A DNA stretch of 32,000 nucleotides from Tannockella kyphosi. Lineage in GTDB: Bacteria; Bacillota_I; Bacilli_A; Erysipelotrichales; Coprobacillaceae. The notes beneath the pieces were generated by a model that was not told the origin of the DNA, made no database searches, and saw nothing but the letters and a program-made list of their open reading frames with translations. Positions within the stretch are counted from its first letter, which is position 1; each line of letters begins with the position of its first letter. This document shows, in pieces, positions 1-17,447 of the stretch. A program made the position numbers and the translations under genes. Location of the stretch: assembly GCF_021054785.1 (NCBI RefSeq), contig NZ_CP088239.1, positions 2,190,001 to 2,222,000 on the forward strand, given 5' to 3'.

Positions 1-2
1 AT

Positions 3-725
3 ATTATTAATACCATTGTACTAGATTGGATTGCTAATTCACAAGATGTGATCGTAGTTACTGATTCAGCATTTAGCATATCTTTCGTGAAATTTTTAAA
101 GAAAAAAAAAGTGAATATGTGCCTTTATTTTCAAAACGAAATAACAAATGAAAACTGTTATAAAATGTCTTTTTTTGATAATATATATACTTATGATAAT
201 GTAGATGCCAAAAAATATGGACTAAAATTTATGCACTATCCATACTCAGGAAAGGTAAAAAAAAATAATTCCACTAACTATCTTTATGACGTTTACTTTA
301 TTGGAAACGCAAAAGATAGAGAACCTCAAATCTTAAAATTATACGGAGAATTAAAAAAAGCAGGACTAAGTGTTCTTTTTAAAGTTGTTGGAGCAGAAAG
401 CAAATCTATTAAAAGTGATAAGTATGTCAATTATGAAGAAAATTTAAAATATATAGAACAATCTAAGTGTCTTTTGGATATCAATGATGTTAATCAACAC
501 GCGCCATCGATTAGATATTTAGAATCAATTTTTTTGGAGAAAAAACTTATCACTACCCAAACCAACATAAGAACATATAAGTATTTTAATCCTGAAAATA
601 CTTTGGTCATAGATTCAGACAACTATTTTGATCAGCTTAATGATTTTATTGCCAAGGAATATAAAGAAGTAGAAACAAATTTTGATAATATTGATTTTCA
701 TAATTGGATTGATCTGTTTTATTAA
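3..725 (+). CDS. Polysaccharide-locus protein of unknown family, 5'-truncated by the window edge
   Basis: The frame is open from nt 3 to the stop at 723-725. There is no stop between nt 3 and the GTG at 48 used by the ORF track, so the gene most likely begins upstream of the window. The product is Lys/Asn-rich and I see no motif I can assign safely. Context: it is the first gene of the glycan operon. Confidence 0.5.
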   Translation: MINTIVLDWIANSQDVIVVTDSAFSISFVKFLKKKKVNMCLYFQNEITNENCYKMSFFDNIYTYDNVDAKKYGLKFMHYPYSGKVKKNNSTNYLYDVYFIGNAKDREPQILKLYGELKKAGLSVLFKVVGAESKSIKSDKYVNYEENLKYIEQSKCLLDINDVNQHAPSIRYLESIFLEKKLITTQTNIRTYKYFNPENTLVIDSDNYFDQLNDFIAKEYKEVETNFDNIDFHNWIDLFY

Positions 726-772: not shown

Positions 773-1768
773 ATGAAAGCAGATAGAATAGAAATAATAT
801 TAGTTACAGGGGCTGCAGGATTTATAGGATCACATTTATGTGAGCAATTACTTAGAGAAGGAATAAACGTTATCGGAATAGATTCTTTTAATTCTTATTA
901 TGATGTCGAGATTAAGAAAAACAATGTGAAATTAATAGAAGCTACTGCAAAAGATAATGGCAAAAATTTCCAGATGCTTACAGGGGATATCAGAGACACA
1001 CAGTTTCTAAACACGGTCTTTAGTAAATATAAAATTGATGCGATAGTTTCATTAGCTGCAAATGCAGGGGTTAGACCATCAATTGAAGAACCTTTAGAAT
1101 ATATTTCGGTAAATTTGGATGGACTAACTAAATTACTTGAATGTGCAAAAAATTACGGAATAAAAAAGTTTATTTTTGCGTCATCATCATCAGTTTATGG
1201 AAATAATAGGAAAACACCTTTTTCAGAAGAGGACCCTGTGGATAACCCTATTTCTCCTTATGCAGCCACAAAAAAAGCTGGAGAATTAATCTGTTATACA
1301 TATCATTCGTTATATGATATTAATATTGCTTGCCTTCGATATTTCACAGTATATGGACCGAGGCAAAGACCAGATTTAGCAATTAATAAGTTTACAAGAT
1401 TAATATTTAACGGCAGTAAGATTGAAATGTATGGTGACGGATCAACGGCACGAGATTATACATATGTTTCAGACGTTGTTTCAGGAACTATTGCAGCAAT
1501 AAACTATCTCTCACGAGATGAAAGTATTTATGATATTTTTAATTTGGGCGGTTCGAATCCGATTAAGCTAATTGATCTAATTGATTTAATAGCTAAAACT
1601 TTAAATAAACCGGTTGAGATTATTACTAAGCCTATGCAACCTGGAGATGTTGAAGTTACGTTTAGTGATTTTAGTAGGGCACAAGAAAAATTAAACTACT
1701 ATCCTCAAGTGACTATTGAAAAAGGGATTGAAAATTTTGTAAGATGGTATGTAAAGAACTCGGATTAG
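773..1768 (+). CDS. NAD-dependent nucleotide-sugar epimerase (extended SDR, UDP-glucuronate 4-epimerase-like)
   Basis: Rossmann motif VTGAAGFIGSHL at the N-terminus. Catalytic YxxxK is present as YAATKKAGE. The YFTVYGPRQRPDLAI block is typical of the Cap1J/LpsL/GAE group. A purine-rich RBS (GAAGGGA) lies upstream of the ATG. Confidence 0.75.
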   Translation: MKADRIEIILVTGAAGFIGSHLCEQLLREGINVIGIDSFNSYYDVEIKKNNVKLIEATAKDNGKNFQMLTGDIRDTQFLNTVFSKYKIDAIVSLAANAGVRPSIEEPLEYISVNLDGLTKLLECAKNYGIKKFIFASSSSVYGNNRKTPFSEEDPVDNPISPYAATKKAGELICYTYHSLYDINIACLRYFTVYGPRQRPDLAINKFTRLIFNGSKIEMYGDGSTARDYTYVSDVVSGTIAAINYLSRDESIYDIFNLGGSNPIKLIDLIDLIAKTLNKPVEIITKPMQPGDVEVTFSDFSRAQEKLNYYPQVTIEKGIENFVRWYVKNSD

Positions 1769-1862: not shown

Positions 1863-2741
1863 ATGAAAGGCATAATTTTAGCAGGTGGGAGTGGTACAAG
1901 ATTATACCCTCTTACACAAGTAACAAGTAAACAATTATTACCAATATATGATAAACCTATGATATATTATCCATTATCAACCCTAATGTTAGCAGGTATA
2001 AAGAATATTTTAATAATCTCTACACCCGAGGATACACCAAGATTTAAAGATTTGCTTTGCGATGGTAACCAGTATGGGATTAACTTGGAATATAAAGTAC
2101 AAGAAAGTCCTGACGGATTGGCACAAGCTTTTACTATAGGTGAAGAATTCATCGGAAGTGATAGCGTTGCTATGATTTTAGGAGATAATATTTTCTATGG
2201 ACATGGGTTAACAAAAAGATTAAAAGAAGCAGAAAAGAAACAAGAAGGAGCGACTGTTTTTGGATATTATGTAGATGATCCAGAAAGATTTGGGATAGTT
2301 GAATTTGATGATAAAGGAAATGCATTATCATTAGAAGAAAAACCTGTTAATCCAAAGTCTAACTATGCAGTAACTGGATTATATTTTTATGATAACAAAG
2401 TGGTTGAATATGCAAAAAACTTAAAGCCAAGTGCTAGAGGTGAGTTAGAAATTACAGACATTAATAAAATTTATCTAGAAGAAAACAAATTAAGTGTAGA
2501 ATTACTTGGTCGTGGATTTACATGGCTAGATACTGGTACTCATGAATCTCTTGCTGATGCCACTTCATTTGTGCAAACTGTGGAGAATTACACAAACAGA
2601 AAAATAGCTTGTTTGGAAGAAATATCATATAGTAATGGTTGGATTACAAAAGAGCAGTTAGAAGAAAGATGTCAGCTATATAGTAAGAATCAATATGGAA
2701 AATATCTAAAAGAGATATTAGATGGTAAATTTCAGTTTTAG
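1863..2741 (+). CDS. rmlA: Glucose-1-phosphate thymidylyltransferase
   Basis: The N-terminus [18 protein letters not shown] is the canonical RmlA/RfbA signature. Length is 292 aa. The C-terminal block [10 protein letters not shown] is conserved. Confidence 0.93.
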
Positions 2742-2752
2742 GAGAATGTAAT

Positions 2753-4069
2753 ATGGAAGAACTATTAGAGTGGATTAATCATTTAAATGAAACAACACAT
2801 GTAGACATAAAAACAAGTGAAATGAGTGATGACTCTTTTTGGTTTTTAGATACTCGAACAGGATATATAAAGAATCGTAATAATTCTTTCTTTTCCATTG
2901 CCGGAATTAAAGGAAATGTGAATAATAAAGAAATACAACAGCCTATCATCATACAAAATGAGATAGGCTATCTTGGTATTATATGTAAAGAGTTTGAAGG
3001 AGTTACAAAGTATTTGATGCAAGCGAAAATAGAACCAGGAAACATTAACTGTGTTCAGATTTCGCCTACAATACAAGCTACTAAAAGCAATTTCACTCAA
3101 AAACATGGAGGTAAGAAACCTGATTATTTAGATTTCTTCATTAATGCAAATGAGTATCAAATAATTGCAGATCAAATACAATCAGAACAGTCTTCAAGAT
3201 TTTATAAAAAAAGAAATAGAAATATGATTATTAAGGTGACTGGAGATGTTGAAGTACTACCGAGATTTAGATGGATGACTTTATGTGAGATAAAAGAAAT
3301 TATGAAGTATCGTAATTTAGTGAATATGGATACTAGAACTGTATTATCATGTTTACCACTTGTTGATGTAAACGCTAGTGATATTGATTGTCAGTTCAAT
3401 TATTTATCAGAAGAATTTAAGAAATCAATACATTCGATAGAATATATTGATGAAATCACGTCTATATATCATAAAATAAATAATTACAAGATGTTTAACT
3501 ACAATGAAGCTAAAATTGTCTCATTATATGAATTAGATAATTGGAATGTATCTAATTTAGGAGTATCATGTAAGAGTGATTTCCCATACGAAGTGAATAT
3601 ATATGATATTGAAATAGAAGGAAGAGAAGTAACTAAATGGCAACAGCCATTATTTAAAGCAAATGGTATTGCTTTATTTGGATTGATTAGAACAATAATT
3701 AATGGAGAGTATAAATATTTAGTAAAGTTATCACCAGAAATTGGTAATTTTGATGCAATGGAAATCGGACCAACAATACAAAAAGAATATGGTGAAACTT
3801 ATCAAGAGGATGCTATAGAAGTCCTTTTTAAAGACAGAATAGATAGAAATATAAGTGTTTCTTTTGATTCTATTTTATCAGAAGAAGGCGGAAGATTTTA
3901 TCATGAAGAAAACAGAAATATTATTTTAGATGTAGAGTATGAGGACTTAAAGGAGTTACCTTTAGAATACTCATTATTATCTTATCGTGCCTTAAATCAC
4001 TTGAATTTAGTTAACAACTGTTTAAATATACAACTTAGAAATTTATTATCAACAATGGAGGTTTGTTAA
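2753..4069 (+). CDS. NDP-hexose (dTDP-4-keto-6-deoxyglucose) 2,3-dehydratase, EvaA/OleV/TylX3-like
   Basis: 438 aa with a visible internal duplication. YLMQAKIEPGN..ISPTIQ / QSEQSSRFYKKRNRNMII in the N-half is mirrored by YLVKLSPEIGN..IGPTIQ / LSEEGGRFYHEENRNIIL in the C-half. This is the two-Nudix-like-repeat architecture of hexose 2,3-dehydratases. The gene is embedded among rml genes. Confidence 0.8.
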   Translation: MEELLEWINHLNETTHVDIKTSEMSDDSFWFLDTRTGYIKNRNNSFFSIAGIKGNVNNKEIQQPIIIQNEIGYLGIICKEFEGVTKYLMQAKIEPGNINCVQISPTIQATKSNFTQKHGGKKPDYLDFFINANEYQIIADQIQSEQSSRFYKKRNRNMIIKVTGDVEVLPRFRWMTLCEIKEIMKYRNLVNMDTRTVLSCLPLVDVNASDIDCQFNYLSEEFKKSIHSIEYIDEITSIYHKINNYKMFNYNEAKIVSLYELDNWNVSNLGVSCKSDFPYEVNIYDIEIEGREVTKWQQPLFKANGIALFGLIRTIINGEYKYLVKLSPEIGNFDAMEIGPTIQKEYGETYQEDAIEVLFKDRIDRNISVSFDSILSEEGGRFYHEENRNIILDVEYEDLKELPLEYSLLSYRALNHLNLVNNCLNIQLRNLLSTMEVC

Positions 4070-5073
4070 TGAATAAAATACGTATTGGAGTAATTAGTCC
4101 ATCAGAAATAGCTTTTAGAAGATTTATGCCTGCTATTTTGAACCATGATTCGTTTGAATATGTAGGTGTGGCGTATCCAACTTCTGATGAATGGGATAAT
4201 GCTTCCGTGTCACAACTAGATTTAGAAATTAATAAAGCAAAAGATTTCATGAAAGAGTACGGTGGAAATATATATGAAGGGTATAAATCGGTTATTAGCG
4301 ACCCATCTATAGATGCAATATATCTTCCATTACCACCAGCTTTACATTATAAATGGGCCAAGTTGGCTTTAGAGAATAACAAACATGTTTTTTTAGAGAA
4401 ACCATCGACTACAAATGAGAAAGACACATTAGAGCTTGTAGAACTAGCAAATAGCAAGTCACTAGCACTACATGAAAATTATATGTTTCAATATCATAAT
4501 CAAATAGATCTATTAAAAGAATTAATAGATACTAAAGAAGTTGGTGAAACGAGACTGATTAGAACTAATTTTGGTTTTCCTAAAAGATTAAGTAATGATT
4601 TTCGTTATAACAAAGACTTAGGTGGTGGTGCATTACTTGATTGTGGAGGATACCCACTTAGATTAATGTCTAAATTAATGGAGCATGATTTGGAAGTAAT
4701 AGCCTCTAAATTAGTATATAATGAAAATGATATTGACTTGTTTGGAAGTGTAATGCTTACAAACAGTGATGTAATAGGACAAGTGTCATTCGGTATGGAT
4801 AATGCTTATAAATGTGATATTGAAGTATGGGGAAGTAATGGAACTATTTATACAGGCAGAGTATTTACTGCTCCAGAAGGTTTTGAAACATCAATAGTAA
4901 TCAATAAAAATAATCAAGAGTCTACTATTTCTGTTAGAGGAGATGATACTTTCTACAAGTCTATTGATAAGTTTTATAAATGTATAACAGATGATAATAT
5001 TAGAGAGTTAGAGTATAAAGAGTTATTAACACAAATTAGATTAGTTGAAGAAGTAAGAAAAGAGGGGAAGTAA
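4069..5073 (+). CDS. Gfo/Idh/MocA-family oxidoreductase, probable dTDP-3,4-diketo-2,6-dideoxyhexose 3-ketoreductase (OleW/TylC1/KijD10-like)
   Basis: N-terminal Rossmann IRIGVISPSEIAFRRF plus the EKP motif (VFLEKPST) characteristic of Gfo/Idh/MocA. I prefer the ATG at 4069 over the track's TTG at 4063: GGAGG sits 8 nt upstream and it forms a TAATG overlap with the upstream stop. The specific function is inferred from its position directly after the 2,3-dehydratase. Confidence 0.65.
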   Translation: MNKIRIGVISPSEIAFRRFMPAILNHDSFEYVGVAYPTSDEWDNASVSQLDLEINKAKDFMKEYGGNIYEGYKSVISDPSIDAIYLPLPPALHYKWAKLALENNKHVFLEKPSTTNEKDTLELVELANSKSLALHENYMFQYHNQIDLLKELIDTKEVGETRLIRTNFGFPKRLSNDFRYNKDLGGGALLDCGGYPLRLMSKLMEHDLEVIASKLVYNENDIDLFGSVMLTNSDVIGQVSFGMDNAYKCDIEVWGSNGTIYTGRVFTAPEGFETSIVINKNNQESTISVRGDDTFYKSIDKFYKCITDDNIRELEYKELLTQIRLVEEVRKEGK

Positions 5074-5074
5074 A

Positions 5075-5638
5075 GTGAAAAAAGTAGAAACTAAGTTACC
5101 AGGAGTTTTTGTTATAGAACCAAATGTATTTTATGATTATAGAGGCTATTTCATGCAGTCCTATGCAATTAATACATATGAACCATTAGGAATCAATAAT
5201 ACATTTGTACAAGATAACCATGCTTTTACAGAAAAAAAAGGAACAATTAGAGCTATTCATTTCCAAAATGATCCTTTTGCACAAGCAAAATTAGTAAGAT
5301 GTACTAGAGGGAGTATACTCGACGTAGCTGTTGATTTAAGAGAAGGGTCTCCAACTTACGGGATGTGGGATGCCGTTGAACTATCAGCTGAAAATTTTAA
5401 GCAAATTTATATTCCTAGAGGTTTTGGTCATGGGTATATGACATTAGAGGACAATTCGGAAGTGCAATATAAATGTGATGATATCTATGATACCAAAACA
5501 GAAAGAGTACTAAGATGGGATGATCCTACTATAGGTATTGAATGGGGAATATCGGATCCAATCGTTTCTCAAAAAGACCAGGATGCACCATTTTTGTCAG
5601 AGTGTGATATTAATTTTAAATATACAGGTGACGAATAA
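5075..5638 (+). CDS. rmlC: dTDP-4-keto-6-deoxyhexose 3,5-(or 5-)epimerase, RmlC cupin family
   Basis: RmlC-type blocks are present: RGYFMQSY, QDNHAF..GTIRAIHFQ, KLVRCTRGSILDVAVDLR..SPTYG, IPRGFGHGY. GTG start with the RBS AGAGGGGAAG upstream. Confidence 0.85.
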   Translation: MKKVETKLPGVFVIEPNVFYDYRGYFMQSYAINTYEPLGINNTFVQDNHAFTEKKGTIRAIHFQNDPFAQAKLVRCTRGSILDVAVDLREGSPTYGMWDAVELSAENFKQIYIPRGFGHGYMTLEDNSEVQYKCDDIYDTKTERVLRWDDPTIGIEWGISDPIVSQKDQDAPFLSECDINFKYTGDE

Positions 5639-6573
5639 TGAAAAAAGTTATAATTACGGGTGTTGGAGGATTTATTGGAAAATCGATATGTTTACGATTG
5701 CTGAGAAGTAATGTAACTGTAATCGGTATTGATGTGGATGACTCAAGAGTAAAAGATTTATTTGAATTTTCTAACTTTTCGTTCAAACAAGCGTCATTTA
5801 GTGAATATGATCAGTTAGAAAAAATAATTAAGGATCGAGATGTTGATGTGCTGTATCATTTTGCATTAAAGGGAGGTCTTTTGGCAAATGCGATAAATGA
5901 TGTTGATATGCAGTTGGAGAATGCTAAGTATACAGTCATGATTTTAAAAAAAGCAATCGAGATGAGTGTAAAAAAATTTGTATTTATTGGAACGGCTAAT
6001 CAATTTGAAGTTCAACAAATAGCTTATAATGAGGATGTTATTCCTAGAAACACATGTATTTATGCAGCGTCTAAATTGGCATCTGAAATGATGTGTAAAG
6101 TGATAGCCAATCAACATGAAATTATTATTTGTTCTGCTTTGTGTGCTATGGTATACGGAGAAGGTAATTACTCTATGCAATTGCCTAACGTAGTAATGAA
6201 ACAGATTATAGAAGGGGCAGAACCAAGGTTGATAGACGGGAATTCTCAATACGATATGGTATATATTCATAATCTAACAAAGGCATTGTCATTAATTGGG
6301 GAACAAGGGGAAAATAATACTAGTTACTATATAGGAAGTCATAGCAATGATTTATTAACGTTTAAAGAACTATGGACTGAAATAAGAAATATTATAAATC
6401 CTGATATCAAACTTGGTTTTGGAGAGTTCAAAGACTCTTTTTCGATGGATTACAGTAAAATCAATTGTAATAAATTGTATGAAGAATTGGGTTATAGACC
6501 AGAATATTCGCTACAAGAAAGTGTGAATAATAGTGTAGAATGGATCAAAAACAATCTGATGGAGGATAAATAA
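5638..6573 (+). CDS. Extended-SDR NAD(P)-dependent reductase, probable dTDP-4-keto-2,6-dideoxyhexose 4-ketoreductase
   Basis: Glycine-rich N-terminus ITGVGGFIGKS and catalytic YAASKLASE (YxxxK). TAATG start/stop overlaps at both ends (5636-5640 and 6571-6575) tie it to rmlC and rmlB. The 4-ketoreductase role is an inference from pathway logic. No canonical rmlD is present in the window. Confidence 0.55.
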   Translation: MKKVIITGVGGFIGKSICLRLLRSNVTVIGIDVDDSRVKDLFEFSNFSFKQASFSEYDQLEKIIKDRDVDVLYHFALKGGLLANAINDVDMQLENAKYTVMILKKAIEMSVKKFVFIGTANQFEVQQIAYNEDVIPRNTCIYAASKLASEMMCKVIANQHEIIICSALCAMVYGEGNYSMQLPNVVMKQIIEGAEPRLIDGNSQYDMVYIHNLTKALSLIGEQGENNTSYYIGSHSNDLLTFKELWTEIRNIINPDIKLGFGEFKDSFSMDYSKINCNKLYEELGYRPEYSLQESVNNSVEWIKNNLMEDK

Positions 6574-7604
6574 TGAAAATACTAGTAACAGGTGGAGCTG
6601 GATTCATTGGTGGTAATTTTGTACACTATATGGTAGATAAGTATCCAGAAGACATGATTGTAAACTTAGATGCATTAACATATGCAGGTAACTTAGAAAC
6701 ATGTGCTCCTGTAGAAGGAAAAGAAAATTATAAGTTTGTAAAAGGTGATATTGCAGATAGAGAATTTATTTATAAACTATTTGAAGATGAAAAGTTTGAT
6801 GTTGTTATTAACTTTGCTGCTGAATCACATGTAGATAGAAGTATTGAAGATCCTGAAATATTTGTAAAAACAAATGTTATGGGTACTACTACTTTATTAG
6901 ATGCATGTAATAAATATGGTATCACTAGATACCATCAAGTATCTACGGATGAGGTTTATGGAGATTTACCTCTAGATAGACCTGATTTGTTCTTTACAGA
7001 AGAAACACCATTACATACATCTAGTCCATATAGTTCTTCTAAAGCTTCAGCAGACTTATTTGTTTTAGCTTATCATCGTACATTTGGATTACCAGTTACT
7101 ATATCTAGATGTTCTAATAACTATGGACCATATCATTTCCCTGAAAAATTAATACCTCTAATGATTTCTAGAGCATTAGAAGATGGAGAATTACCAGTAT
7201 ATGGTAAAGGGGAAAATGTAAGAGATTGGTTACATGTATATGATCATTGTGTAGCTATTGATCTTATTGTAAGAAAAGGACAAGTAGGAGAAGTATATAA
7301 TGTAGGTGGACATAATGAACGTACGAACTTAGAAGTAGTACAAACTATATTAAAAGCATTAGATAAACCAGAAACATTAATTAAATATGTTACGGATAGA
7401 AAAGGACATGATATGCGTTATGCTATTGATCCTAAGAAATTAGAAACAGAATTAGGATGGGTACCTAAGTATAACTTTGATACTGGTATTCAACAAACAA
7501 TTCAATGGTATTTAGATAACAAAGAATGGTGGCAAAACATTATCTCTGGCGAATACCAAAATTATTTCAATAAAATGTATAAGGAAAATGGAAGAGTAGA
7601 TTAG
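6573..7604 (+). CDS. rmlB: dTDP-glucose 4,6-dehydratase
   Basis: VTGGAGFIGGNF, AAESHVDRSI, STDEVYGD, YSSSKASAD (YxxxK) and NNYGPYHFPEKLIP are canonical RmlB/RfbB blocks. Confidence 0.93.
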   Translation: MKILVTGGAGFIGGNFVHYMVDKYPEDMIVNLDALTYAGNLETCAPVEGKENYKFVKGDIADREFIYKLFEDEKFDVVINFAAESHVDRSIEDPEIFVKTNVMGTTTLLDACNKYGITRYHQVSTDEVYGDLPLDRPDLFFTEETPLHTSSPYSSSKASADLFVLAYHRTFGLPVTISRCSNNYGPYHFPEKLIPLMISRALEDGELPVYGKGENVRDWLHVYDHCVAIDLIVRKGQVGEVYNVGGHNERTNLEVVQTILKALDKPETLIKYVTDRKGHDMRYAIDPKKLETELGWVPKYNFDTGIQQTIQWYLDNKEWWQNIISGEYQNYFNKMYKENGRVD

Positions 7605-7653: not shown

Positions 7654-8844
7654 ATGAATATACTGATTTATTATCATGATGAAATATGCCCCAATCATGG
7701 AGGAATACAGCGAATGTCCAGTAACTTGGCTGAAGAATTAATTAAGAAGGGACATGCCGTATACTTCCTATCTAACAAGGAAAATGGAGTTAGTGAGGAT
7801 AGTGGGTCAGTTTGTGAAAAGTTCTTTATACAAACTGATACGTTTTGTGATTTAGAATCAACTAAATTTGTTAAGAATTTAATGATTTCAAAGGGAATAG
7901 ATATTGTTTTAAATCAGTCTCATCGCTACACAGACTTCATTAAATATGTAAAAATCAATTTTGATATACCAATAGTAACAGCGTTTCATTTGGCACCGTA
8001 CCATCAAGTAGCAATTGAAAAAAATGGTTTAAATAAACTTGCAAACTTTTTTTCAATAGAACAAGCTTTAAACCTTAAAAGGATTATTGGTAGGCCATAT
8101 AAAATATTTATGGCAAAAAAGAGTATTCGGAGACTTTTCAAAGACATGTATAATAACAGCGATAAAATTGTTGTTTTGTCTAGTGGATTTGAAAGTGATT
8201 TTTCCGAAGTGATTGGGGAAAACTCGGGAAAGATTGTTTCTATCTCAAATTTTACAACATTCTCCCCCAATGCTGTAGAGAAAAGCATTTTAATTAATAA
8301 AGAAAAAACAATTCTATTCGTAGGGAGATTAACTTTTTCAGACAAGAGAGTTGATAGGCTAATATTAATTTGGGGGAAAATTTATAGAAAATATCCTGAA
8401 TGGAAATTAAAGATACTAGGAGATGGACCTGAAAAAGAGAGAATACAAAAATATATAGATCGGAAGAATATTCAAAATATTGAATTGGTGGGGTTTGTGA
8501 AGCCAGAACAAGAATATAAAAATGCATCAATTCTTTGCATGACATCATCTTGTGAAGGACTGCCGATGGTATTGGTGGAAGCAGGAAACTATGGTTGTGT
8601 GCCAATGGCATTTGAATGTTCTTCATCACTAAAAGATGTCATTGACCACAAAAAGAATGGAATACTGGTGGCTCCATTTGACATGAAAAAATATCAAGAA
8701 GAGTTAGAAATGTTAATTGGGAATACGGAATATAGAGAGCAACTTCAAAACGAAGTGCTGCTAGTGAATGAAAAATTCGATAAGGATAGAATTATATTAA
8801 AGTGGGAAACGCTCTTTAGTGAGCTGCTAGAACAAAAAAAATAA
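7654..8844 (+). CDS. GT4-family (GT-B fold) glycosyltransferase
   Basis: The C-terminal retaining-GT4 signature is present: SSCEGLPMVLVEAGNYGCVPMAF, followed by NGILV. The RBS GAAGGAG lies upstream. Confidence 0.85.
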   Translation: MNILIYYHDEICPNHGGIQRMSSNLAEELIKKGHAVYFLSNKENGVSEDSGSVCEKFFIQTDTFCDLESTKFVKNLMISKGIDIVLNQSHRYTDFIKYVKINFDIPIVTAFHLAPYHQVAIEKNGLNKLANFFSIEQALNLKRIIGRPYKIFMAKKSIRRLFKDMYNNSDKIVVLSSGFESDFSEVIGENSGKIVSISNFTTFSPNAVEKSILINKEKTILFVGRLTFSDKRVDRLILIWGKIYRKYPEWKLKILGDGPEKERIQKYIDRKNIQNIELVGFVKPEQEYKNASILCMTSSCEGLPMVLVEAGNYGCVPMAFECSSSLKDVIDHKKNGILVAPFDMKKYQEELEMLIGNTEYREQLQNEVLLVNEKFDKDRIILKWETLFSELLEQKK

Positions 8845-8860: not shown

Positions 8861-10405
8861 ATGTCGAGAAGAAAGAAAGCAGTTAAAAATTTATATGTAT
8901 CCATATTGTGTTATAGTGTGAACATTGTAATGGCTTTCGGGCTAAGAACAATATTTATTAAAGTTTTATCGGTTGATTATTTGGGAATCAATGGGTTATT
9001 TACTAATATTTTATCTTTTCTATCTCTAGCTGAGTTAGGTATTGGAACTGCTATAGTTTATTCTCTTTACGCTCCTTTAGCTGATAATGATGTAGAGTTA
9101 GTTAAAACGTACATGCTAATTTATAAGAAAGTATATAACGTTATAGGATGTCTAGTATTTATTTTAGGTATGTGTTTATTACCTGCTCTACCATATTTTA
9201 TTGCAGGAGAAACATCTATTGAAAGTCTTAATTTGATTTATTTATTATTTATTTTCAATAGTGCAAGTTCTTATTTCTTCAGTTATAACCAAAGTCTTTT
9301 AACAGCCGATCAGAAAATTTATATGGTAAAATTTTATTCGGAAATATTTAAGGTGTGTATGATGATTGCACAAGCAGTTCTTTTGATTGTTACTAGGGAC
9401 TATATTTTTTACTTAATAGCTAGCATTATATTCACATTATTGACAAATATTTTTCTTTATTATAAAACACTGAGAGTTTATCCGTTTTTAAAGGATAAAT
9501 CATCCGTTTCATGTTTGGATGATGAGAAAAAAAACAAACTAATCACAAATGTAAAAGCACTTTTTTTACATAAAATTGGGTCGCTCCTGGTAGTTGGTGT
9601 TGACAACATTGTGATATCCGCCTTTATAGGATTATCAGCAGTTGGAATATACTCAAATTACACACTAATTATTGCTAATATATCTGCAGTTATAACGCTT
9701 ATAGAAGGTTCCATTAGGGCAGGAATAGGAAACTATGTGACGAAAGAAAACGATAAGAAGTGCTATGATTTTTTCATGTTTAATGACTTTATTTGGTATG
9801 TGATTTATTTGTTTTGCGCAATTTGTTTGGTTAATCTTTTGAATCCTTTTATAGGAACTATATGGTTAAATGATACAAGTTATTTATTTGATATGTCAAT
9901 CGTAATAGTAATCGTGTTAGACTTCTTTATTAAGGGGATGAGAAAAAATACATTATTGTTTAAAGAAGTTTATGGAATATATGACCAAGATAAATTTAAA
10001 CCTCTTTTTGAAGGAGGATTAAATTTAATCCTTTCCGTTATATTAGTCCAAAGAATGGGCATAGTAGGAGTTTTGGTGGCAACTATAATTACTAATGTTA
10101 TGATAAACTTTCTAGTTGAACCGTATATGGTTTTTAAGTATGGACTTAAGCGTGATGTAAAGTCATATTATGTACATCTTATTTTGAAAGTTTTTACATC
10201 GTTAATAATTATAATGGTATCAATGTGTGTTGTATCTTTAATAGAAAGTAATACGGTTTTAGCATTTGTTTTAAGGGGTGTCACAGCAATTATTGTATTC
10301 AGTGTAGGCGTCACACTTTTTAACTTTAAAAATATATATTATAAAAAAATATTATCAACGCTGAAAAATAATGTTAAAGGAAAATTGTTCAGGCGTTATA
10401 AATGA
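8861..10405 (+). CDS. wzx: Wzx-type oligosaccharide-unit flippase (MOP/PST superfamily)
   Basis: 514 aa and hydrophobic throughout, with about 12-14 predicted helices. The basic N-terminus (RRKKAVKNL) is followed by LGINGLFTNILSFLSLAELGIGTAIVYSLY, which is typical of Polysacc_synt flippases. Glycan-locus context supports the call. Confidence 0.8.
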   Translation: MSRRKKAVKNLYVSILCYSVNIVMAFGLRTIFIKVLSVDYLGINGLFTNILSFLSLAELGIGTAIVYSLYAPLADNDVELVKTYMLIYKKVYNVIGCLVFILGMCLLPALPYFIAGETSIESLNLIYLLFIFNSASSYFFSYNQSLLTADQKIYMVKFYSEIFKVCMMIAQAVLLIVTRDYIFYLIASIIFTLLTNIFLYYKTLRVYPFLKDKSSVSCLDDEKKNKLITNVKALFLHKIGSLLVVGVDNIVISAFIGLSAVGIYSNYTLIIANISAVITLIEGSIRAGIGNYVTKENDKKCYDFFMFNDFIWYVIYLFCAICLVNLLNPFIGTIWLNDTSYLFDMSIVIVIVLDFFIKGMRKNTLLFKEVYGIYDQDKFKPLFEGGLNLILSVILVQRMGIVGVLVATIITNVMINFLVEPYMVFKYGLKRDVKSYYVHLILKVFTSLIIIMVSMCVVSLIESNTVLAFVLRGVTAIIVFSVGVTLFNFKNIYYKKILSTLKNNVKGKLFRRYK

Positions 10406-10495
10406 TAATAGAATTTTATGAAAATTCAGCTTTACGTTATTGTAGAGTTTGCCGATATCGGCGCTTTAAAATCTAGCGGGGTTTAGCGTAAAAAA

Positions 10496-10543
10496 GCTTT
10501 AAAAATAGAGCGGGGATAATTTTCCCCGTTCTATTTTTAAAGC
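10496..10543. terminator. Long hairpin, probable (bidirectional-type) intrinsic terminator after wzx
   Basis: GCTTTAAAAATAGAGCGGGGA (10496-10516) pairs with TCCCCGTTCTATTTTTAAAGC (10523-10543), giving a 21-bp stem with one G-U pair. The GC-rich core is flanked by an A-tract on the 5' side and a T-tract on the 3' side. Confidence 0.65.
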
Positions 10544-10624
10544 CAATGCGAACATAAATTACAGTTTTTTTATTTTTTCGATTTTTTGTAGGGTCCCCTT
10601 GGTGATCCTACTCTTTTTATTGGC
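10535..10624 (+). repeat. Copy 1 of a ~90-nt direct repeat unit with a conserved internal hairpin
   Basis: It aligns by eye with 10700-10790: 5 substitutions plus 2 small indels over about 90 nt. It contains GTAGGGTC-CCCTTGGT-GATCCTAC, an 8-bp stem with one G-U pair. Confidence 0.85.
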
Positions 10625-10641
10625 TCTGTGTCAAGACTGGG

Positions 10642-10683
10642 GGACAAGTGATTATTAAGTAATCACTTGTCCTTTTTCTTTTT
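10642..10683 (+). terminator. Rho-independent terminator between the two repeat units
   Basis: GGACAAGTGATTA (10642-10654) and TAATCACTTGTCC (10660-10672) form a perfect 13-bp stem with a 5-nt loop. TTTTTCTTTTT follows immediately. Confidence 0.75.
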
Positions 10684-10699
10684 CTATAAATTGGGGTGC

Positions 10700-10790
10700 T
10701 TTTAAAGCTGATGCAAACATAAATTACAGTTTTTTATTTTTTAGATTTTTTGTAGGGTCCCCTTGGTGATTCTACTCTTTTTATTTTGGC
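10700..10790 (+). repeat. Copy 2 of the ~90-nt direct repeat unit
   Basis: See copy 1. The hairpin is retained as GTAGGGTC-CCCTTGGT-GATTCTAC; the C-to-T change keeps pairing as a G-U pair. Confidence 0.85.
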
Positions 10791-10813
10791 AGAATGTTCA
10801 CTTATAAGTAAGT

Positions 10814-10845
10814 GTGAAATTATGTAGATAACAACATAATTTCAC
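10814..10845. repeat. Perfect 12-bp inverted repeat (hairpin) downstream of repeat copy 2
   Basis: GTGAAATTATGT (10814-10825) and ACATAATTTCAC (10834-10845) flank an 8-nt loop. No T-run follows, so it is not a classical terminator. Confidence 0.6.
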
Positions 10846-10925
10846 AATCACCCTTAATTCTTCATAATCATAATAAGACATTATCATAAGTTAATCAGTG
10901 CTACATTTTTATTGTGCCTTTTTCA

Positions 10926-10953
10926 TTGAAAATCACAGTCAAAATGATATACT
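10926..10953 (+). promoter_or_regulatory. Candidate sigma-A promoter (extended -10) for the cpsC-cpsD-cpsB module
   Basis: TTGAAA (10926-10931), a 16-nt spacer ending in TG-a, then TATACT (10948-10953). It lies about 50 nt upstream of the ATG at 11003. Confidence 0.4.
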
Positions 10954-11002
10954 AGTAGTAGTTTTAAAAATAAGTATATTAATTAAAGAAAAGGGGAATA
11001 AT

Positions 11003-11740
11003 ATGGAAGATGATATTTTTATAGATTTGTCTGTTGTGTTTAAGACAATGTTAAAGAAAAGCTGGATTATTGCTATTGCAACAATACTAGGGGCAACTGC
11101 TATGTTTGGGTATAGTAGCTTTGTTAAAACACCATTGTATGAGGCAGATGTAAAGTTATATGTAAACAATAGTACCTTTTCATTAGGTAGTACATCATAT
11201 AGTATTACTAGTGGTGAGTTATCTGCTGCACAGAGTCTGATAGAGACATATATTGTTATATTAGAAACAAGAACTGTAATTAATGAGATCATTGATGAAG
11301 GAAATTATGACTACACATATGAGGAAATGCTTTCAATGATTAGTGCAGCATCAGTAAATAGCACAGAGGTCTTTAGTGTTACTGTTACGAATGAATCTGC
11401 ATCAGAAGCTGCAGATATTGCTAATACAATAGGAACAGTACTACCTGACTGTATTAGTGATGTAGTAGATGGTAGTGATGTACGTATTGTAGATTATGCA
11501 GTAGAAGCAGTAAATCAAGTATATCCTGTAGTACTTACGGATACAATAAAAGGTGCAATGATTGGATTTGTTCTAGTAAGTGGTATTATTTTATTACAAA
11601 TATTGTTTGATAGTGTAATTCGTAGTCAAGACTATATTAGTCAAACATATGATTATCCTATTCTAGCATCTATTCCTGAAGGTGAAACTAAAGGTGGATA
11701 TTATGGTGGTATAAAAACCGGAAAAAAAGGAGGCCTGTAA
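11003..11740 (+). CDS. cpsC: Wzz/CpsC/YwqC-type chain-length determinant, transmembrane activator of the BY-kinase
   Basis: I prefer the ATG at 11003, which has the RBS AAGGGGAA 4-5 nt upstream, over the track's start at 10898. An N-terminal TM (WIIAIATILGATAMFGY) is followed by an extracellular domain, a second TM (GAMIGFVLVSGIILLQILF) and a short basic tail. The kinase gene follows directly. Confidence 0.85.
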   Translation: MEDDIFIDLSVVFKTMLKKSWIIAIATILGATAMFGYSSFVKTPLYEADVKLYVNNSTFSLGSTSYSITSGELSAAQSLIETYIVILETRTVINEIIDEGNYDYTYEEMLSMISAASVNSTEVFSVTVTNESASEAADIANTIGTVLPDCISDVVDGSDVRIVDYAVEAVNQVYPVVLTDTIKGAMIGFVLVSGIILLQILFDSVIRSQDYISQTYDYPILASIPEGETKGGYYGGIKTGKKGGL

Positions 11741-12445
11741 ATGAGTAAAGTAAGTACATTAAATGATGCGAATCTAATTTATCCAAATTTACCTTTCGCT
11801 GCTACAGAAGCTTATAAAATGCTTCGTACAAATATTGTTTATTCCTTTACAGATGAAATTAGTTGTCCTGTAATAGGAATTACTAGTTCTCTAAAAGGAG
11901 AAGGGAAAAGTACAACGGCTATTAATATAGCCTATACACTAGCTGTTACAAACAAGAAAGTATTATTTATTGAATGTGATATGCGTTTACCAAGTGCTGG
12001 TAAACACTTACACATTCAATCAGAAGATGGTCTTTCTTCTATTTTAACAGGTGTTCAAAAGAATATAGCTAGTGTAATCATTAAAGATAAAAGTTTTCCT
12101 AATTTAAATTTCATGTTAAGTGGTCCTATACCACCAAACCCATCTGAAATACTAGATTCAAATAGTATGAAAAAAGTTCTAGAATTACTAAAAAAAGAAT
12201 ATGATTACATTGTATTGGACTTACCACCAATAACACTAGTATCTGATCCAATAGTTGTTTCTAAATATACAGATGGTATGATTATTGTAACTCGTCAAGA
12301 CTATAGTGAGAAAAAAGCATTACATCAATCTATATCACAATTGAAATATGTAAATGCTAGAATTCTAGGTTTTGTATATAGAGGACAAAAGAATAGTGGA
12401 TTTGGATATGGTAATAAGTATAGTGGTAAATATGAATATAAATAG
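11741..12445 (+). CDS. cpsD: BY-type protein tyrosine kinase (CpsD/Wze/YwqD-like)
   Basis: Walker A is SSLKGEGKST, Walker A' is VLFIECDMRLP, and Walker B is DYIVLDLPP. The C-terminal tyrosine cluster is YRGQKNSGFGYGNKYSGKYEYK. The start codon follows the cpsC stop directly (TAAATG). Confidence 0.9.
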   Translation: MSKVSTLNDANLIYPNLPFAATEAYKMLRTNIVYSFTDEISCPVIGITSSLKGEGKSTTAINIAYTLAVTNKKVLFIECDMRLPSAGKHLHIQSEDGLSSILTGVQKNIASVIIKDKSFPNLNFMLSGPIPPNPSEILDSNSMKKVLELLKKEYDYIVLDLPPITLVSDPIVVSKYTDGMIIVTRQDYSEKKALHQSISQLKYVNARILGFVYRGQKNSGFGYGNKYSGKYEYK

Positions 12446-12454
12446 GATGATGAA

Positions 12455-13162
12455 ATGATAGATTTTCATAGTCATATATTACCAGGAATAGATGATGGTA
12501 GTGATAGTATAGAAACAACAATACAAATGCTAAAAGAATCTAAGAAGCAAGGTGTAGAATACATGATTGCAACACCACATTATTATCCTATGAATATTTC
12601 ATTACAAGACTTTATAAGTAATAGAAAAAAAGCAAAAGATAAAGTAGATGCTATTATGGATGACTCTATGCCTAAACTCCTTTTAGGAGCAGAAGTATAT
12701 TATTATTATGGAATCAGTAGTTTAGGCACAGATATTCATTCTTTGTGTGTAGAAGGAACAAATGTATTATTGTTAGAATTACCAATGTGTTCTTTTACTC
12801 AAGAACACATTTCTGAAGTAATTAAACTTCAAAATCAATGTGGTTTGACAGTGGTTTTAGCTCATATTGAAAGATATATAGGATTTAGTGGAAATAAAGA
12901 TGTATTTATGTATCTAAAAGAACAAGGTATCTTATTTCAAGTAAATGCTACTTTCTTTATGAATCATAAAACAAGAAGATATGCATTATCTTTATTAAAA
13001 CAAGGTTATATAGATGCATTAGGTAGCGACTGTCATAATATGACAAGTCGCAATCCTAATCTTCTATTAGCGATGAATTATTTAGAGAAAAAAGGTTGTT
13101 TAAAGCAAGTGTTATCAATTTTTAATGAAAATAGTTTAATTCTTAACATTTCAGGAAAATAA
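12455..13162 (+). CDS. cpsB: PHP-family manganese-dependent protein-tyrosine phosphatase (CpsB/Wzh/YwqE-like)
   Basis: The N-terminus MIDFHSHILPGIDDG is the signature of CpsB-type phosphatases. Later His motifs are present (ATPH, LAHIERY, GSDCH). Confidence 0.9.
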   Translation: MIDFHSHILPGIDDGSDSIETTIQMLKESKKQGVEYMIATPHYYPMNISLQDFISNRKKAKDKVDAIMDDSMPKLLLGAEVYYYYGISSLGTDIHSLCVEGTNVLLLELPMCSFTQEHISEVIKLQNQCGLTVVLAHIERYIGFSGNKDVFMYLKEQGILFQVNATFFMNHKTRRYALSLLKQGYIDALGSDCHNMTSRNPNLLLAMNYLEKKGCLKQVLSIFNENSLILNISGK

Positions 13163-13185
13163 TTCATTTTTTAAGGTAATATCTA

Positions 13186-13213
13186 TTGATTTTTAAAAAT
13201 TATGTAGTAAACT
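13186..13213 (+). promoter_or_regulatory. Weak candidate sigma-A promoter upstream of the acidic surface-protein gene
   Basis: TTGATT (13186-13191), a 16-nt spacer, then TAAACT (13208-13213). The strong RBS AAGGAGGAG follows before the ATG at 13251. Confidence 0.3.
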
Positions 13214-13250
13214 GAAGAAAGTATTAGAAATTCAAGGAGGAGATGTAAAA

Positions 13251-13946
13251 ATGAAAAAAATTGTAAGTTCTTTAATCGTATGTGCTATGTTAGCTGTATC
13301 GGTTTGTTCAGTAAATGCAACAGTAGTATCTAGTGTGGAAGCAAAGGCTGCACCAACTATTTCAACTGTAACTACTTCAACAGGAGCAGTTATTGACGTT
13401 GCTGATATTGAAATTACTGCTTTAGCAGATTTAAGTACATTAGATGCAGATGATCAAGTAGCTTTAGATGCAGCTTATGAAGAAATTAAGGATGCGTCAT
13501 CACTAGTAACTTTAGTTCCTGCTTTAGCAGATGTATTAGAAGATGGTGAAAGTGCAGATGATTTAGCTGTACGTGATTTATTTTATTTAGATGTACCAAC
13601 AGAAGTATATGATGTATTAGATGCTGGTGGAACTGTTACACTTTCATTTGCAGTAACTGCAGATGCTGGAGAAACATTCTATGTAATGGCTAATTGTGAT
13701 GGTGAATGGGTTCCTGTATCAAGCGAAGATGTAACTTTAAGTGCTGATGGTTCAACTTTAACTGTTACTTTCAGTGAGTTATGCCCAATTGCTTTTGTAA
13801 GTAATACAGTTGCAGCTGATGATTCATCAAGTGATTCAGTTGATACTGGAGACAATACTAACGTAGCTATGTATGGTATTATTGCAGCTGGTTGTGCAGC
13901 AGTAGCGGTAGCTTTAGTAGTAACTCGTAAAAAAGAAGTTGAATAA
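13251..13946 (+). CDS. Secreted, highly acidic surface protein with a C-terminal sorting-signal-like anchor
   Basis: Signal peptide MKKIVSSLIVCAMLAVSVCSVNA. By my count there are about 38 Asp/Glu against about 8 Lys/Arg. The C-terminus is SVDTGDNTNV, then a hydrophobic segment (AMYGIIAAGCAAVAVALVV), then TRKKEVE. No family recognised. Confidence 0.7.
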   Translation: MKKIVSSLIVCAMLAVSVCSVNATVVSSVEAKAAPTISTVTTSTGAVIDVADIEITALADLSTLDADDQVALDAAYEEIKDASSLVTLVPALADVLEDGESADDLAVRDLFYLDVPTEVYDVLDAGGTVTLSFAVTADAGETFYVMANCDGEWVPVSSEDVTLSADGSTLTVTFSELCPIAFVSNTVAADDSSSDSVDTGDNTNVAMYGIIAAGCAAVAVALVVTRKKEVE

Positions 13947-13963
13947 TTTCAACTTTTAAAGAT

Positions 13964-14941
13964 TTGAAAAAAACAAGTATAAGTATATATAAAATAGTAG
14001 TCGCTATATTGGCATGCGTTTCTGTGGTGTCTGGCTACTATTTTTTTACTAATTTTAATCAAACAGAAGAAGCCATTGATAATGGAAATCCGTTTGATAC
14101 AACAACTGCACTAGAATATAATGGACAAACATATGATGAAAAATCAAATTTAGAATTAGTCTTATTTATGGGTATTGATGAGTTTGGTGCTCAAGTATCC
14201 AGTGAATCTTATAACAATTCTGCTCAAACTGATTTTGTTTCATTAATCATATTTGATCATACTAATAAAACCTTTGAAGTGCTTTACTTAAGCAGAGATA
14301 CAATACTTGAAATGGATGTTCTTGGAATAAGTGGAACAATAACAGGAACATATACAGGACAATTAGCTTTAGCTCATACATATGGAGATGGATTAGAAGA
14401 AAGCTGTGAGAATACAGTTACAGCAGTATCTAGACTCCTTAATGATATTTCTATTGATTATTATATTTCTGTTACAATGAGTGCGATACCAATACTAAAT
14501 GATGCTTATGGTGGTATAGAAGTAACGATTAATGAAGATTTAACATCAGTAGATTCTACTTTAATAGAAGGAGAAACAATTCTATTAGATGGAGATCAAG
14601 CACTAAATTACTTAAGAGCTAGAATGACTGTTGGAGATGGTACAAATGCTGCACGTATGGAAAGACAACAAATATATTTAGATAACTTATATACTAAAAT
14701 GATGGAAACAGATGTAAGCTTAGTAAACTTAGTAATAAATGATCTTTCTGATTATTTATTAACTGATGCAACTATTAATGAACTTACTAGTATGAATACA
14801 AATATTCAAGAATATGAATTCTTAGGAAGTAATTATATAGAAGGAGAAACAGTTTTAGGTGAAGAATATTATGAAGTATATTTAGATGAAGATTCTTTAT
14901 TAGAAACCATATTTAATCTATTTTACAATCCAAATTACTAA
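13964..14941 (+). CDS. LytR-CpsA-Psr (LCP) family glycopolymer-to-peptidoglycan ligase
   Basis: An N-terminal TM anchor (IYKIVVAILACVSVVSGYYFF) is followed by LCP blocks: LVLFMGIDE, QTDFVSLIIF, DGDQALNYLRAR, R..RQQ. The only in-frame start is a TTG with no convincing RBS, so start confidence is lower than gene confidence. Confidence 0.8.
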   Translation: MKKTSISIYKIVVAILACVSVVSGYYFFTNFNQTEEAIDNGNPFDTTTALEYNGQTYDEKSNLELVLFMGIDEFGAQVSSESYNNSAQTDFVSLIIFDHTNKTFEVLYLSRDTILEMDVLGISGTITGTYTGQLALAHTYGDGLEESCENTVTAVSRLLNDISIDYYISVTMSAIPILNDAYGGIEVTINEDLTSVDSTLIEGETILLDGDQALNYLRARMTVGDGTNAARMERQQIYLDNLYTKMMETDVSLVNLVINDLSDYLLTDATINELTSMNTNIQEYEFLGSNYIEGETVLGEEYYEVYLDEDSLLETIFNLFYNPNY

Positions 14942-14948
14942 TAAAAGT

Positions 14949-14975
14949 AGCGACATGTAAATGTCGCTTTTCTAT
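14949..14975 (+). terminator. Rho-independent terminator ending the polysaccharide locus
   Basis: AGCGACAT (14949-14956), loop GTAA, ATGTCGCT (14961-14968), then TTTCTATT. Confidence 0.7.
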
Positions 14976-15059
14976 TATAAAACTATTTCACTATCTTTTT
15001 AAAATAAATATACACTTATTGTTGTATATTTGGTACTATAGAAGAAAGGAGTGATAAAG

Positions 15060-15908: not shown

Positions 15909-15910
15909 TT

Positions 15911-16861: not shown

Positions 16862-16862
16862 T

Positions 16863-17078
16863 ATGGAAACAATTGAACGTAGATTTGGTCACAAAGTAAA
16901 ACAACTAAGACTATCACAAAAAATATCTCAAGAAGAACTAGCGTTTCGTTCAGGACTATCTAAAAACTACATCTCTGATGTAGAAAGAGGAACTAGAAAT
17001 GTATCGCTAAGAGCGATACATAAACTAGCTTATGGTCTGCAAGTAACAGAAAATGATTTGTTCATGTTTAATTCATAA
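16863..17078 (+). CDS. Small XRE-family helix-turn-helix transcriptional regulator (71 aa)
   Basis: KQLRLSQKISQEELAFRSGLSKNYISDVERGTRNVSLRAIHKLAYGL is a canonical HTH_3/Cro-C1 fold sequence. The ATG lies 1 nt after the whiA stop. Confidence 0.85.
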   Translation: METIERRFGHKVKQLRLSQKISQEELAFRSGLSKNYISDVERGTRNVSLRAIHKLAYGLQVTENDLFMFNS

Positions 17079-17116
17079 TTACATCATATAGTAATAAAAG
17101 ACGAGGAGTGGGTAAA

Positions 17117-17405: not shown

Positions 17406-17447
17406 GCTAAATTATAATATACTCAAAGTATAGAAAGAAGGGGTAGC

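Follow-up and report, generated by a model that had tools for sequence, protein, structure and literature searches.

In oleandomycin biosynthesis, deoxythymidine diphosphate (dTDP)-L-olivose is made by OleS, OleE, OleV, OleW, OleL and OleU, which act as synthase, 4,6-dehydratase, 2,3-dehydratase, 3-ketoreductase, 3,5-epimerase and 4-ketoreductase, respectively. The dTDP-L-digitoxose route of kijanimicin uses KijD5, KijD4, KijB1, KijD10, KijD11 and KijC2, with KijD11 described as a 5-epimerase (PMC11167396). Nucleoside diphosphate (NDP)-hexose 2,3-dehydratases are mentioned in the literature almost only in actinomycete natural-product clusters, the subject of 13 of the 18 papers that name them. 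Here we describe a comparable set of enzymes in a 32,000-nt stretch of DNA from Tannockella kyphosi (hereafter the window), whose positions 1863 to 7604 carry a six-gene cassette that begins with rmlA, ends with rmlB and lies within a capsule locus. The encoded dehydratase and SDR (short-chain dehydrogenase/reductase) match T. kyphosi proteins with 100% identity. The species is placed in the Coprobacillaceae (Erysipelotrichales), and the literature on the genus places it in the gut of Kyphosus, a herbivorous fish. Judged by its sequence, the cassette probably makes a dTDP-2,6-dideoxy-L-hexose that enters the capsule.

An earlier note on the window had remarked that 2,6-dideoxyhexoses are seldom reported from bacterial surfaces. 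This holds in so far as a 2025 review of gut-microbiota cell-surface polysaccharides lists none, but needs qualifying for Tannerella forsythia, where digitoxose, a 2,6-dideoxyhexose, occurs in the O-glycan of the S-layer protein (PMC6120980). No 2,6-dideoxyhexose appears in the main text of a survey covering 55 monosaccharide pathways, the review covering digitoxose is silent on surface glycans (PMC11167396), and we found no literature description of a 2,6-dideoxyhexose pathway in a Bacillota surface glycan.

All six open reading frames (ORFs) of the cassette lie where the earlier note had placed them, forming an unbroken co-directional run on the + strand of the ORF map, and profile and structure-database searches agree with the families it had named (Table 1). 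The short gaps and three TAATG junctions it described can be read directly from the DNA: rmlA and the dehydratase gene are separated by 11 nt (2741/2753) and the ketoreductase and rmlC genes by 1 nt (5073/5075), and stop and start codons overlap at 4069, 5638 and 6573. A GGAGG-like (Shine-Dalgarno-like) ribosome-binding site precedes every cassette start. For the ketoreductase, the ATG at 4069, which public gene calls also use, is a more likely start than the TTG at 4063 given by the ORF lister. Between window positions 1 and 10,000 there is no + strand hairpin comparable to the cluster at 10588–10675. Overlapping start and stop codons, together with the lack of internal terminators, argue for one transcription unit and indicate that the six genes are one translationally coupled block within a long capsule operon.

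The RmlA, RmlB and RmlC assignments exceed the cutoffs of their family models, and RmlB carries the STDE and YxxxK motifs. The protein encoded at 2753–4069, predicted in the earlier note to be a 2,3-dehydratase, matches the dehydratase profile over two stretches and aligns with EvaA (PDB 4j7g) over both domains, with E 3.4e-71. Its residues E94 (in MQAKIEPGN) and E145 (in QSEQSS), invariant in 30 homologues, align with E139 and E190 of EvaA, which we take to be the catalytic residues of the N-terminal domain. The prediction of a Gfo/Idh/MocA-type reductase at 4069–5073 likewise held up in profile and structure searches. For this protein the top PDB match, with E 6.8e-53 over residues 4–333, is 3rbv, a sugar 3-ketoreductase and presumably KijD10; the next structure of the Gfo/Idh/MocA family reaches only E 1.7e-20. 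In the alignment with 3rbv the EKP lysine and the Asp and Tyr of the GGGALLDxGxYP motif are identical, and we take the latter two to be the counterparts of Asp182 and Tyr186, catalytic residues of KijD10 in addition to its active-site lysine. That lysine is Lys102 in KijD10 (PMC11167396). The epimerase is closest to true RmlC structures (E 1.7e-52 and 6.6e-50), with weaker matches to the mono-epimerases EvaD (3.8e-28), NovW (8.6e-33) and ChmJ (3.2e-26), and its residues H62, K72, Y132 and D168 are conserved in the alignment with 1dzr. Evidence of this kind, from families and catalytic residues, backs five of the six enzymes, and from it we infer their activities.

The remaining enzyme, encoded at 5638–6573, is an extended SDR, as the earlier note had said; the 4-ketoreductase role that the note also gave it comes from genomic context. 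The protein carries a GxxGxxG motif (TGVGGFIG) and the residues T119, Y142 and K146, with TAN where RmlB has TDE. A GxxGxxG motif, a Ser/Thr-Tyr-Lys triad and a missing Asp-Glu pair do not tell reductases from epimerases. Because the protein reaches the cutoff of neither RmlD model (TIGR01214, 18.7 bits compared with 224; PF04321, 25.4 compared with 27), it was not filed as RmlD. A structure model with a predicted local distance difference test (pLDDT) score of 93 gave, in a Foldseek search of the PDB, a generic extended-SDR fold in which reductases, epimerases and dehydratases are not separated. A 42%-identical relative in Clostridium butyricum is part of a dehydratase-ketoreductase-RmlC-SDR module. 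Another relative, 36% identical, is encoded last in an rmlA-rmlC-rmlB-SDR operon, in the place of RmlD, and that operon contains neither dehydratase nor ketoreductase. Relatives of 30–31% identity adjoin RmlC-like genes; their loci also encode a 4,6-dehydratase, a short nucleotidyltransferase and a DegT-like protein of ~450 residues, and look to us like cytidine diphosphate (CDP)-3,6-dideoxyhexose pathways. From this shared context, an RmlC-type epimerase beside the SDR, we infer that the enzyme is a 4-ketoreductase acting after the epimerase on L-series deoxysugars.

In the proposed pathway, RmlA would make dTDP-glucose from glucose-1-phosphate, and RmlB would convert it into dTDP-4-keto-6-deoxyglucose. 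The EvaA-like dehydratase would then remove the 2-hydroxyl group to give an unstable 3,4-diketo-2,6-dideoxy sugar, which the KijD10-like reductase would reduce at C3 at once. Epimerisation at C5, and probably also at C3, by the RmlC-type enzyme and reduction of C4 by the SDR would complete the sequence. This order of steps matches the known dTDP-L-olivose and dTDP-L-digitoxose routes, in line with the enzyme logic set out in the earlier note. The product of 2,3-dehydratases is unstable, and the adjacency and TAATG coupling of the dehydratase and ketoreductase genes fit this instability. A cytoplasmic glycosyltransferase of the locus would transfer the sugar onto an undecaprenyl-linked repeat unit, which would be flipped by the Wzx-like protein, polymerised and finally linked to the wall by the LCP enzyme.

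As the earlier note had cautioned, correctly, the stereochemistry at C3 and C4 cannot be read from the sequence. Ketoreductases of the Gfo/Idh/MocA type, such as KijD10 and OleW, leave C3 in the D-gluco configuration. Starting from there, reduction at C4 after the action of a true 3,5-epimerase would lead to L-olivose or L-oliose, and after that of a C5-only epimerase to L-digitoxose or L-boivinose. Since the epimerase sequence is RmlC-like, we lean towards L-olivose (2-deoxy-L-rhamnose) or L-oliose (2-deoxy-L-fucose) as the product, provided that the epimerase acts at both C3 and C5.

The setting of the cassette can be followed beyond the window in a metagenomic contig (L081), which differs from the window by 2 mismatches over 6,851 shared bp and reaches 7.2 kb further upstream. 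The earlier note had placed the cassette in a cell-surface polysaccharide locus, and a priming transferase, CpsC, CpsD and CpsB homologues and an LCP enzyme were indeed found. Given these genes and the glycosyltransferases that accompany them, the locus is of the capsule type, with a putative Wzx and a putative Wzy. The candidate Wzy, a 438-residue membrane protein, has no family match in profile searches. Of the flanking genes named in the earlier note, the uridine diphosphate (UDP)-glucuronate epimerase-like gene and the GT4 glycosyltransferase gene were recovered, and Wzx was recovered weakly: the 514-residue protein scores 30.7 bits with NF041503 compared with a cutoff of 300, has at least ten hydrophobic segments and has no Pfam match. 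The epimerase-like SDR at 773–1768 matches 6zl6, the structure of the Bacillus cereus UDP-glucuronate 4-epimerase, and the gene is outside the dTDP pathway. In agreement with the earlier note, no aminotransferase, methyltransferase, 3-dehydratase or canonical rmlD was found among the scanned window ORFs of at least 100 residues, in which the best score with the RmlD model TIGR01214 was 55 bits compared with the cutoff of 224.

Table 1. Features of the cassette, the surrounding capsule locus and its upstream extension. Positions refer to the window unless given for contig L081; E, expectation value.
Feature	Position	Strand	Evidence or remark
RmlA, glucose-1-phosphate thymidylyltransferase (step 1)	1863..2741	+	TIGR01207, 495.6 bits (cutoff 360.65)
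NDP-hexose 2,3-dehydratase, two Nudix-like repeats (step 3)	2753..4069	+	PF03559, E 2e-114, two stretches
Gfo/Idh/MocA-type, predicted dTDP-3,4-diketo-2,6-dideoxyhexose 3-ketoreductase (step 4)	4069..5073	+	PF01408, PF22725
RmlC-type 3,5-epimerase (step 5)	5075..5638	+	TIGR01221, 210.8 bits (cutoff 155.75)
Extended SDR, putative 4-ketoreductase (step 6)	5638..6573	+	PF01370, E 2.5e-32
RmlB, dTDP-glucose 4,6-dehydratase (step 2)	6573..7604	+	TIGR01181, 491.8 bits (cutoff 365.1)
Priming polyprenyl glycosylphosphotransferase	L081 144-1523		TIGR03025, 301.9 bits (cutoff 295.55)
One GT2 and two GT4 glycosyltransferases	L081, upstream of window		
D-glucuronyl C5-epimerase-like gene	L081 3659-4621 (~2.6-3.6 kb upstream of window position 1)		PF06662, E 1.7e-42
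Membrane protein of 438 residues, probable Wzy	L081, upstream of window		Nine hydrophobic segments
WaaS/CpsH-family glycosyltransferase, 3' part	1..725	+	NF053598, 145-148 bits (cutoff 60)
UDP-glucuronate 4-epimerase-like extended SDR	773..1768	+	PF01370, E 3.9e-62; PDB 6zl6, E 4.4e-60
GT4 glycosyltransferase	7654..8844	+	PF00534, E 5.2e-29; PF13439
Polytopic membrane protein, distant Wzx-like flippase, 514 residues	8861..10405	+	NF041503, E 1.6e-7, full profile length
Terminator-like hairpins closing the long operon	10588..10675	+	17-bp stem at 10639-10675, then T run
Wzz/CpsC	10898-11740	+	PF02706
CpsD-like P-loop protein	11741-12445	+	PF13614
CpsB phosphatase	12455-13162	+	PF19567
Protein of 231 residues without annotation, hydrophobic N- and C-termini	13251-13946	+	Between cpsB and LCP gene
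LCP ligase	13964-14941	+	PF03816

The wider distribution of the cassette was surveyed by scanning one genome per species with subfamily-specific dehydratase motifs, which yielded at least 582 confirmed stretches; all counts of related loci given here cover the best 80 of these. At 90% clustering more than 6,500 proteins are related to the dehydratase at E <=1e-20, and at 50% clustering the family comprises 1,505 representatives at E <=1e-3, or 561 at E <=1e-30. The 80 loci come almost entirely from gut or rumen Bacillota (Lachnospiraceae, Oscillospiraceae, Erysipelotrichales and other Clostridia), with a few outside the main groups (Brevinema, Mailhella, Pelosinus), and include the cultured strains Oscillibacter ruminantium GH1, Peptoanaerobacter stomatis ACC19a and Pseudoflavonifractor sp. 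524-17. Dehydratase and ketoreductase genes are adjacent in 69 of the 80, and among the 68 loci with enough downstream sequence the pair is followed by RmlC and SDR genes in 32. The survey of the complete set in Bacillota, suggested in the earlier note, found all six genes together in 21 of the 80 loci, among glycan-assembly genes. An Erysipelotrichales metagenome-assembled genome (MAG; L068) and Coprobacillus cateniformis share the gene order of the window, with the tailoring genes bracketed by rmlA and rmlB. These many loci linked to glycan assembly make the cassette a recurrent module of Bacillota surface-glycan loci and not a quirk of one genome.

Among 139 randomly sampled neighbour proteins, GT2 glycosyltransferases, SDRs, DegT proteins, GT4 glycosyltransferases, GLF, Wzx and acyltransferases predominate, and no polyketide synthase (PKS) or non-ribosomal peptide synthetase (NRPS) family is among the 25 commonest. 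A natural-product cluster was rejected as an explanation because the neighbours are glycan-assembly genes and neither PKS nor NRPS is among these commonest families. The G+C content is 0.27–0.33 over the locus and its flanks, with no compositional island. Horizontal import from actinomycetes was rejected on account of this uniform composition and because the closest homologues are hundreds of Bacillota proteins of 50–69% identity. The cassette had been called antibiotic-style; this is apt for the logic of its steps, but not if import from antibiotic producers is meant, since the subfamily is native to gut Bacillota and widespread among them.

Some observations weigh against a 2,6-dideoxy-L-hexose as the outcome. 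The epimerase is a textbook RmlC that could also take the 2-hydroxylated RmlB product, and the operon might also, or only, yield a sugar of the rhamnose or 6-deoxytalose type. The SDR has a best PDB identity of 17–24%, with epimerases, dehydratases and reductases (GalE-like, RmlB, Rmd) scoring alike. Finally, one public assembly (Logan SRR27046588) has a C>T change at window 5264 (L081 12507) that turns Gln64 of the RmlC-like protein into a stop, two residues past the catalytic His62. Only 2 of the 6,851 shared bases differ, this one among them, and a second assembly (SRR26879383) matches the window exactly. The Q64* change is a loss-of-function allele, of natural or laboratory origin, unless it reflects an assembly error; taken as it stands, a nonsense allele of the epimerase implies that this sample, at least, can do without the full pathway. 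The alternative to which the first of these points leads is that RmlA, RmlB, RmlC and the SDR chiefly make a 2-hydroxylated L-sugar, dTDP-6-deoxy-L-talose or dTDP-L-rhamnose, from which the dehydratase and ketoreductase divert part of the flux, so that the capsule would hold both sugars or chiefly the 2-hydroxylated one. The epimerase does score above the RmlC equivalog cutoff and is nearest to true RmlCs, the 36%-identical SDR relative is indeed encoded in an operon without dehydratase and ketoreductase genes, and in a window without RmlD the SDR would be the only reductase available. Even so, we consider this branching, though the strongest of the alternatives, unlikely: the four tailoring genes stay together in the same order across many genomes, the dehydratase and ketoreductase genes come first after rmlA and are translationally coupled, and the same competition exists in known pathways, where 2-deoxy products are made nonetheless.

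The sugar could also be made as proposed and be used on another glycoconjugate, such as a teichoic-acid-type polymer, a glycolipid or a glycoprotein, instead of the surrounding Wzx/Wzy capsule. Related genomes give this idea some substance by linking the cassette to teichoic-acid genes and to a triad of a GT2 glycosyltransferase (PgfS/ArnC-like), GtrA and YfhO, which decorates polymers outside the membrane via an undecaprenyl-phosphate sugar. Here, however, neither the window nor the 7 kb upstream contains a gene for an ArnC-like GT2, GtrA or a YfhO/GT-C protein, and the cassette lies within the capsule operon with no terminator ahead of the Wzx-like gene, which makes a destination outside the capsule improbable. 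Least probable of all, and in our judgement very remote, is that the dehydratase, the ketoreductase or both are inactive remnants or act on another substrate, with no 2-deoxy sugar being made. The Q64* change shows point inactivation within the operon in one assembly, but it affects the epimerase; both ORFs in question are full length with conserved catalytic residues, and they are strongly conserved among hundreds of homologues at 50–69% identity. A 2,6-dideoxy-L-hexose destined for the capsule thus remains the reading that we prefer.

For the transfer of this sugar, our preferred first candidate is the WaaS/CpsH-family glycosyltransferase encoded two genes upstream of the cassette. In L081 its gene codes for 288 residues, with a start 142 nt ahead of the window. 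The family is present in 11 of the 80 related loci, and the RmlC and SDR genes in all 11; most of these loci are from related rabbit-gut MAGs and hence not independent. The GT4 glycosyltransferase at 7654–8844 comes second. It was down-weighted as a dedicated transferase because the 80 loci show no conservation of it next to the cassette.

Several features of the T. kyphosi locus stand apart from the cassette. The combination of a C5-epimerase-like gene and a UDP-glucuronate 4-epimerase-like gene in one operon suggests that the capsule may hold galacturonate and possibly iduronate-type residues. The cpsC, cpsD, cpsB and LCP genes (10898–14941) form a separate unit at the 3' end of the locus and not at its 5' end. 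The region 10405–10898, 3' of the Wzx-like gene, contains two ~87-nt direct repeats (10535–10621 and 10700–10785, 164 nt apart), each ending with a terminator-like hairpin, and a 24-nt palindrome at 10496–10543 lies between the Wzx-like gene and cpsC. Downstream of ~15 kb the window contains housekeeping genes: rapZ, whiA, a second rmlB, a Mur ligase-family gene, ddl and leu/ilv genes. The second RmlB paralogue (17448–18434), 60% identical to the cassette RmlB, is encoded between whiA and a zinc-ribbon/DUF5050 gene and stands alone, with no adjoining rmlA, rmlC or rmlD. A T-box leader (RF00230, 117.7 bits) at 22284–22535 precedes the leuA/ilv operon.

The related loci vary around the shared dehydratase and ketoreductase genes. 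A gene of the UDP-galactopyranose mutase type (GLF; TIGR00031, 355 bits compared with a cutoff of 304) lies between the SDR gene and rmlA/rmlB in 26 of the 80, among them L004–L011, L078, L084 and L087, and 18 of the 26 carry the RmlC and SDR genes; it is absent from the window. This gene may just supply galactofuranose or may act on a dTDP-sugar. We did not adopt the latter role, given that the equivalog cutoff for UDP-galactopyranose mutase is passed and that the window has no such gene. In 32 of the 80 loci a PgfS/ArnC-like GT2 of ~315 residues directly adjoins the cassette, often with GtrA (e.g. L087 3151–4500). A human-gut Erysipelotrichaceae MAG (L001) adds a YfhO protein to this context (14254–18388) and also has teichoic-acid genes (Glyphos_transf, ABC-2 transporter). 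The GT2/GtrA/YfhO context suggests that an undecaprenyl-phosphate-linked 2-deoxy sugar decorates wall polymers outside the membrane. The cassette of the same MAG (9112–14254) has no RmlC, and its proteins are identical to those of the window to very different degrees (RmlB 89.6%, RmlA 70%, dehydratase 61%, SDR 30%), giving the picture of a mosaic cassette between conserved rmlA/rmlB brackets. Tandem RmlC-like and SDR paralogues follow the ketoreductase in L023, L024, L025, L065, L071 and L074, with two RmlC and six SDR genes in L024, which hints at several stereoisomers or variable expression. In 13 of the 80 loci (e.g. L037 6587–7702) the dehydratase-ketoreductase pair is followed by a DegT/EryC1-type aminotransferase in the absence of the RmlC and SDR genes, and these variants presumably make amino-trideoxy sugars.

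Taking the survey as a whole, we tentatively propose, as a possibility about as easily doubted as believed, that 2,6-dideoxyhexoses are widely used yet overlooked as building blocks in the envelopes of gut Bacillota, which they reach by two routes, with swappable modules diversifying their stereochemistry. One route may be cytoplasmic incorporation into Wzx/Wzy capsules, as in Tannockella, beside uronic acids that possibly include iduronate. The other may be extracytoplasmic decoration of wall polymers by GT2, GtrA and YfhO in Lachnospiraceae, Oscillospiraceae, Clostridium butyricum and relatives. Epimerase and reductase modules swapped between conserved rmlA/rmlB brackets may account for the stereochemical diversity. 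If the prediction for the cassette holds, the surface glycans of gut commensals would hold more kinds of monosaccharide than current tables show. Glycosides of 2-deoxy sugars are unusually acid-labile and have no 2-hydroxyl group, a feature recognised by many lectins, antibodies, phage depolymerases and glycosidases; their presence could thus have consequences for immune recognition, for phage host range and for the detection of sugars by standard hydrolysis-based methods. The cassettes are also compact, anaerobe-derived enzyme sets for glycoengineering with dTDP-2-deoxy sugars. Cultured carriers (Coprobacillus cateniformis, Clostridium butyricum, Peptoanaerobacter stomatis, Oscillibacter ruminantium GH1 and Pseudoflavonifractor sp. 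524-17) allow direct testing. The finding is mechanistically unsurprising, and it is a concrete and testable pointer to an unlisted class of sugars in the envelopes of gut commensals.

Compared with the oleandomycin set, the window encodes the same six chemical steps, and the families match for the synthase, the two dehydratases, the 3-ketoreductase and the epimerase. The last reductase of the window falls below the RmlD family model, which OleU may fit. Unlike the oleandomycin genes, those of the window belong to a gut bacterium of the Coprobacillaceae and form part of a capsule locus, not of a polyketide cluster. The kijanimicin route shares the order of reactions, and its KijD10 is the structure closest to the window 3-ketoreductase; the difference lies in the epimerase, which in the window looks like a full 3,5-epimerase and would lead to an arabino or lyxo rather than a ribo product. 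With the RmlABCD and Tll pathways to dTDP-L-rhamnose and dTDP-6-deoxy-L-talose, the window shares equivalog-level RmlA, RmlB and RmlC and an SDR whose relatives can occupy the position of RmlD, but it has two additional enzymes for removal of the 2-hydroxyl group and no RmlD. The 3,6-dideoxyhexose pathways of O-antigens (ascarylose or abequose type) are similar in that the operon for a rare dideoxy sugar is embedded in a surface-polysaccharide locus, and different in their chemistry, being CDP-linked and using a pyridoxamine 5'-phosphate (PMP) enzyme for deoxygenation at C3. Tannerella forsythia provides the precedent for a 2,6-dideoxyhexose on a bacterial cell surface, although there the sugar is on a protein O-glycan of a member of the Bacteroidota, not in a Gram-positive capsule, and the report mentions no dTDP or dehydratase genes (PMC6120980). 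The type of pathway and the presence of a 2,6-dideoxyhexose on a cell surface are thus already known; the novelty lies in finding such a cassette, complete and with good support, among the capsule genes of a Gram-positive bacterium, and in how widely it occurs in gut Bacillota.

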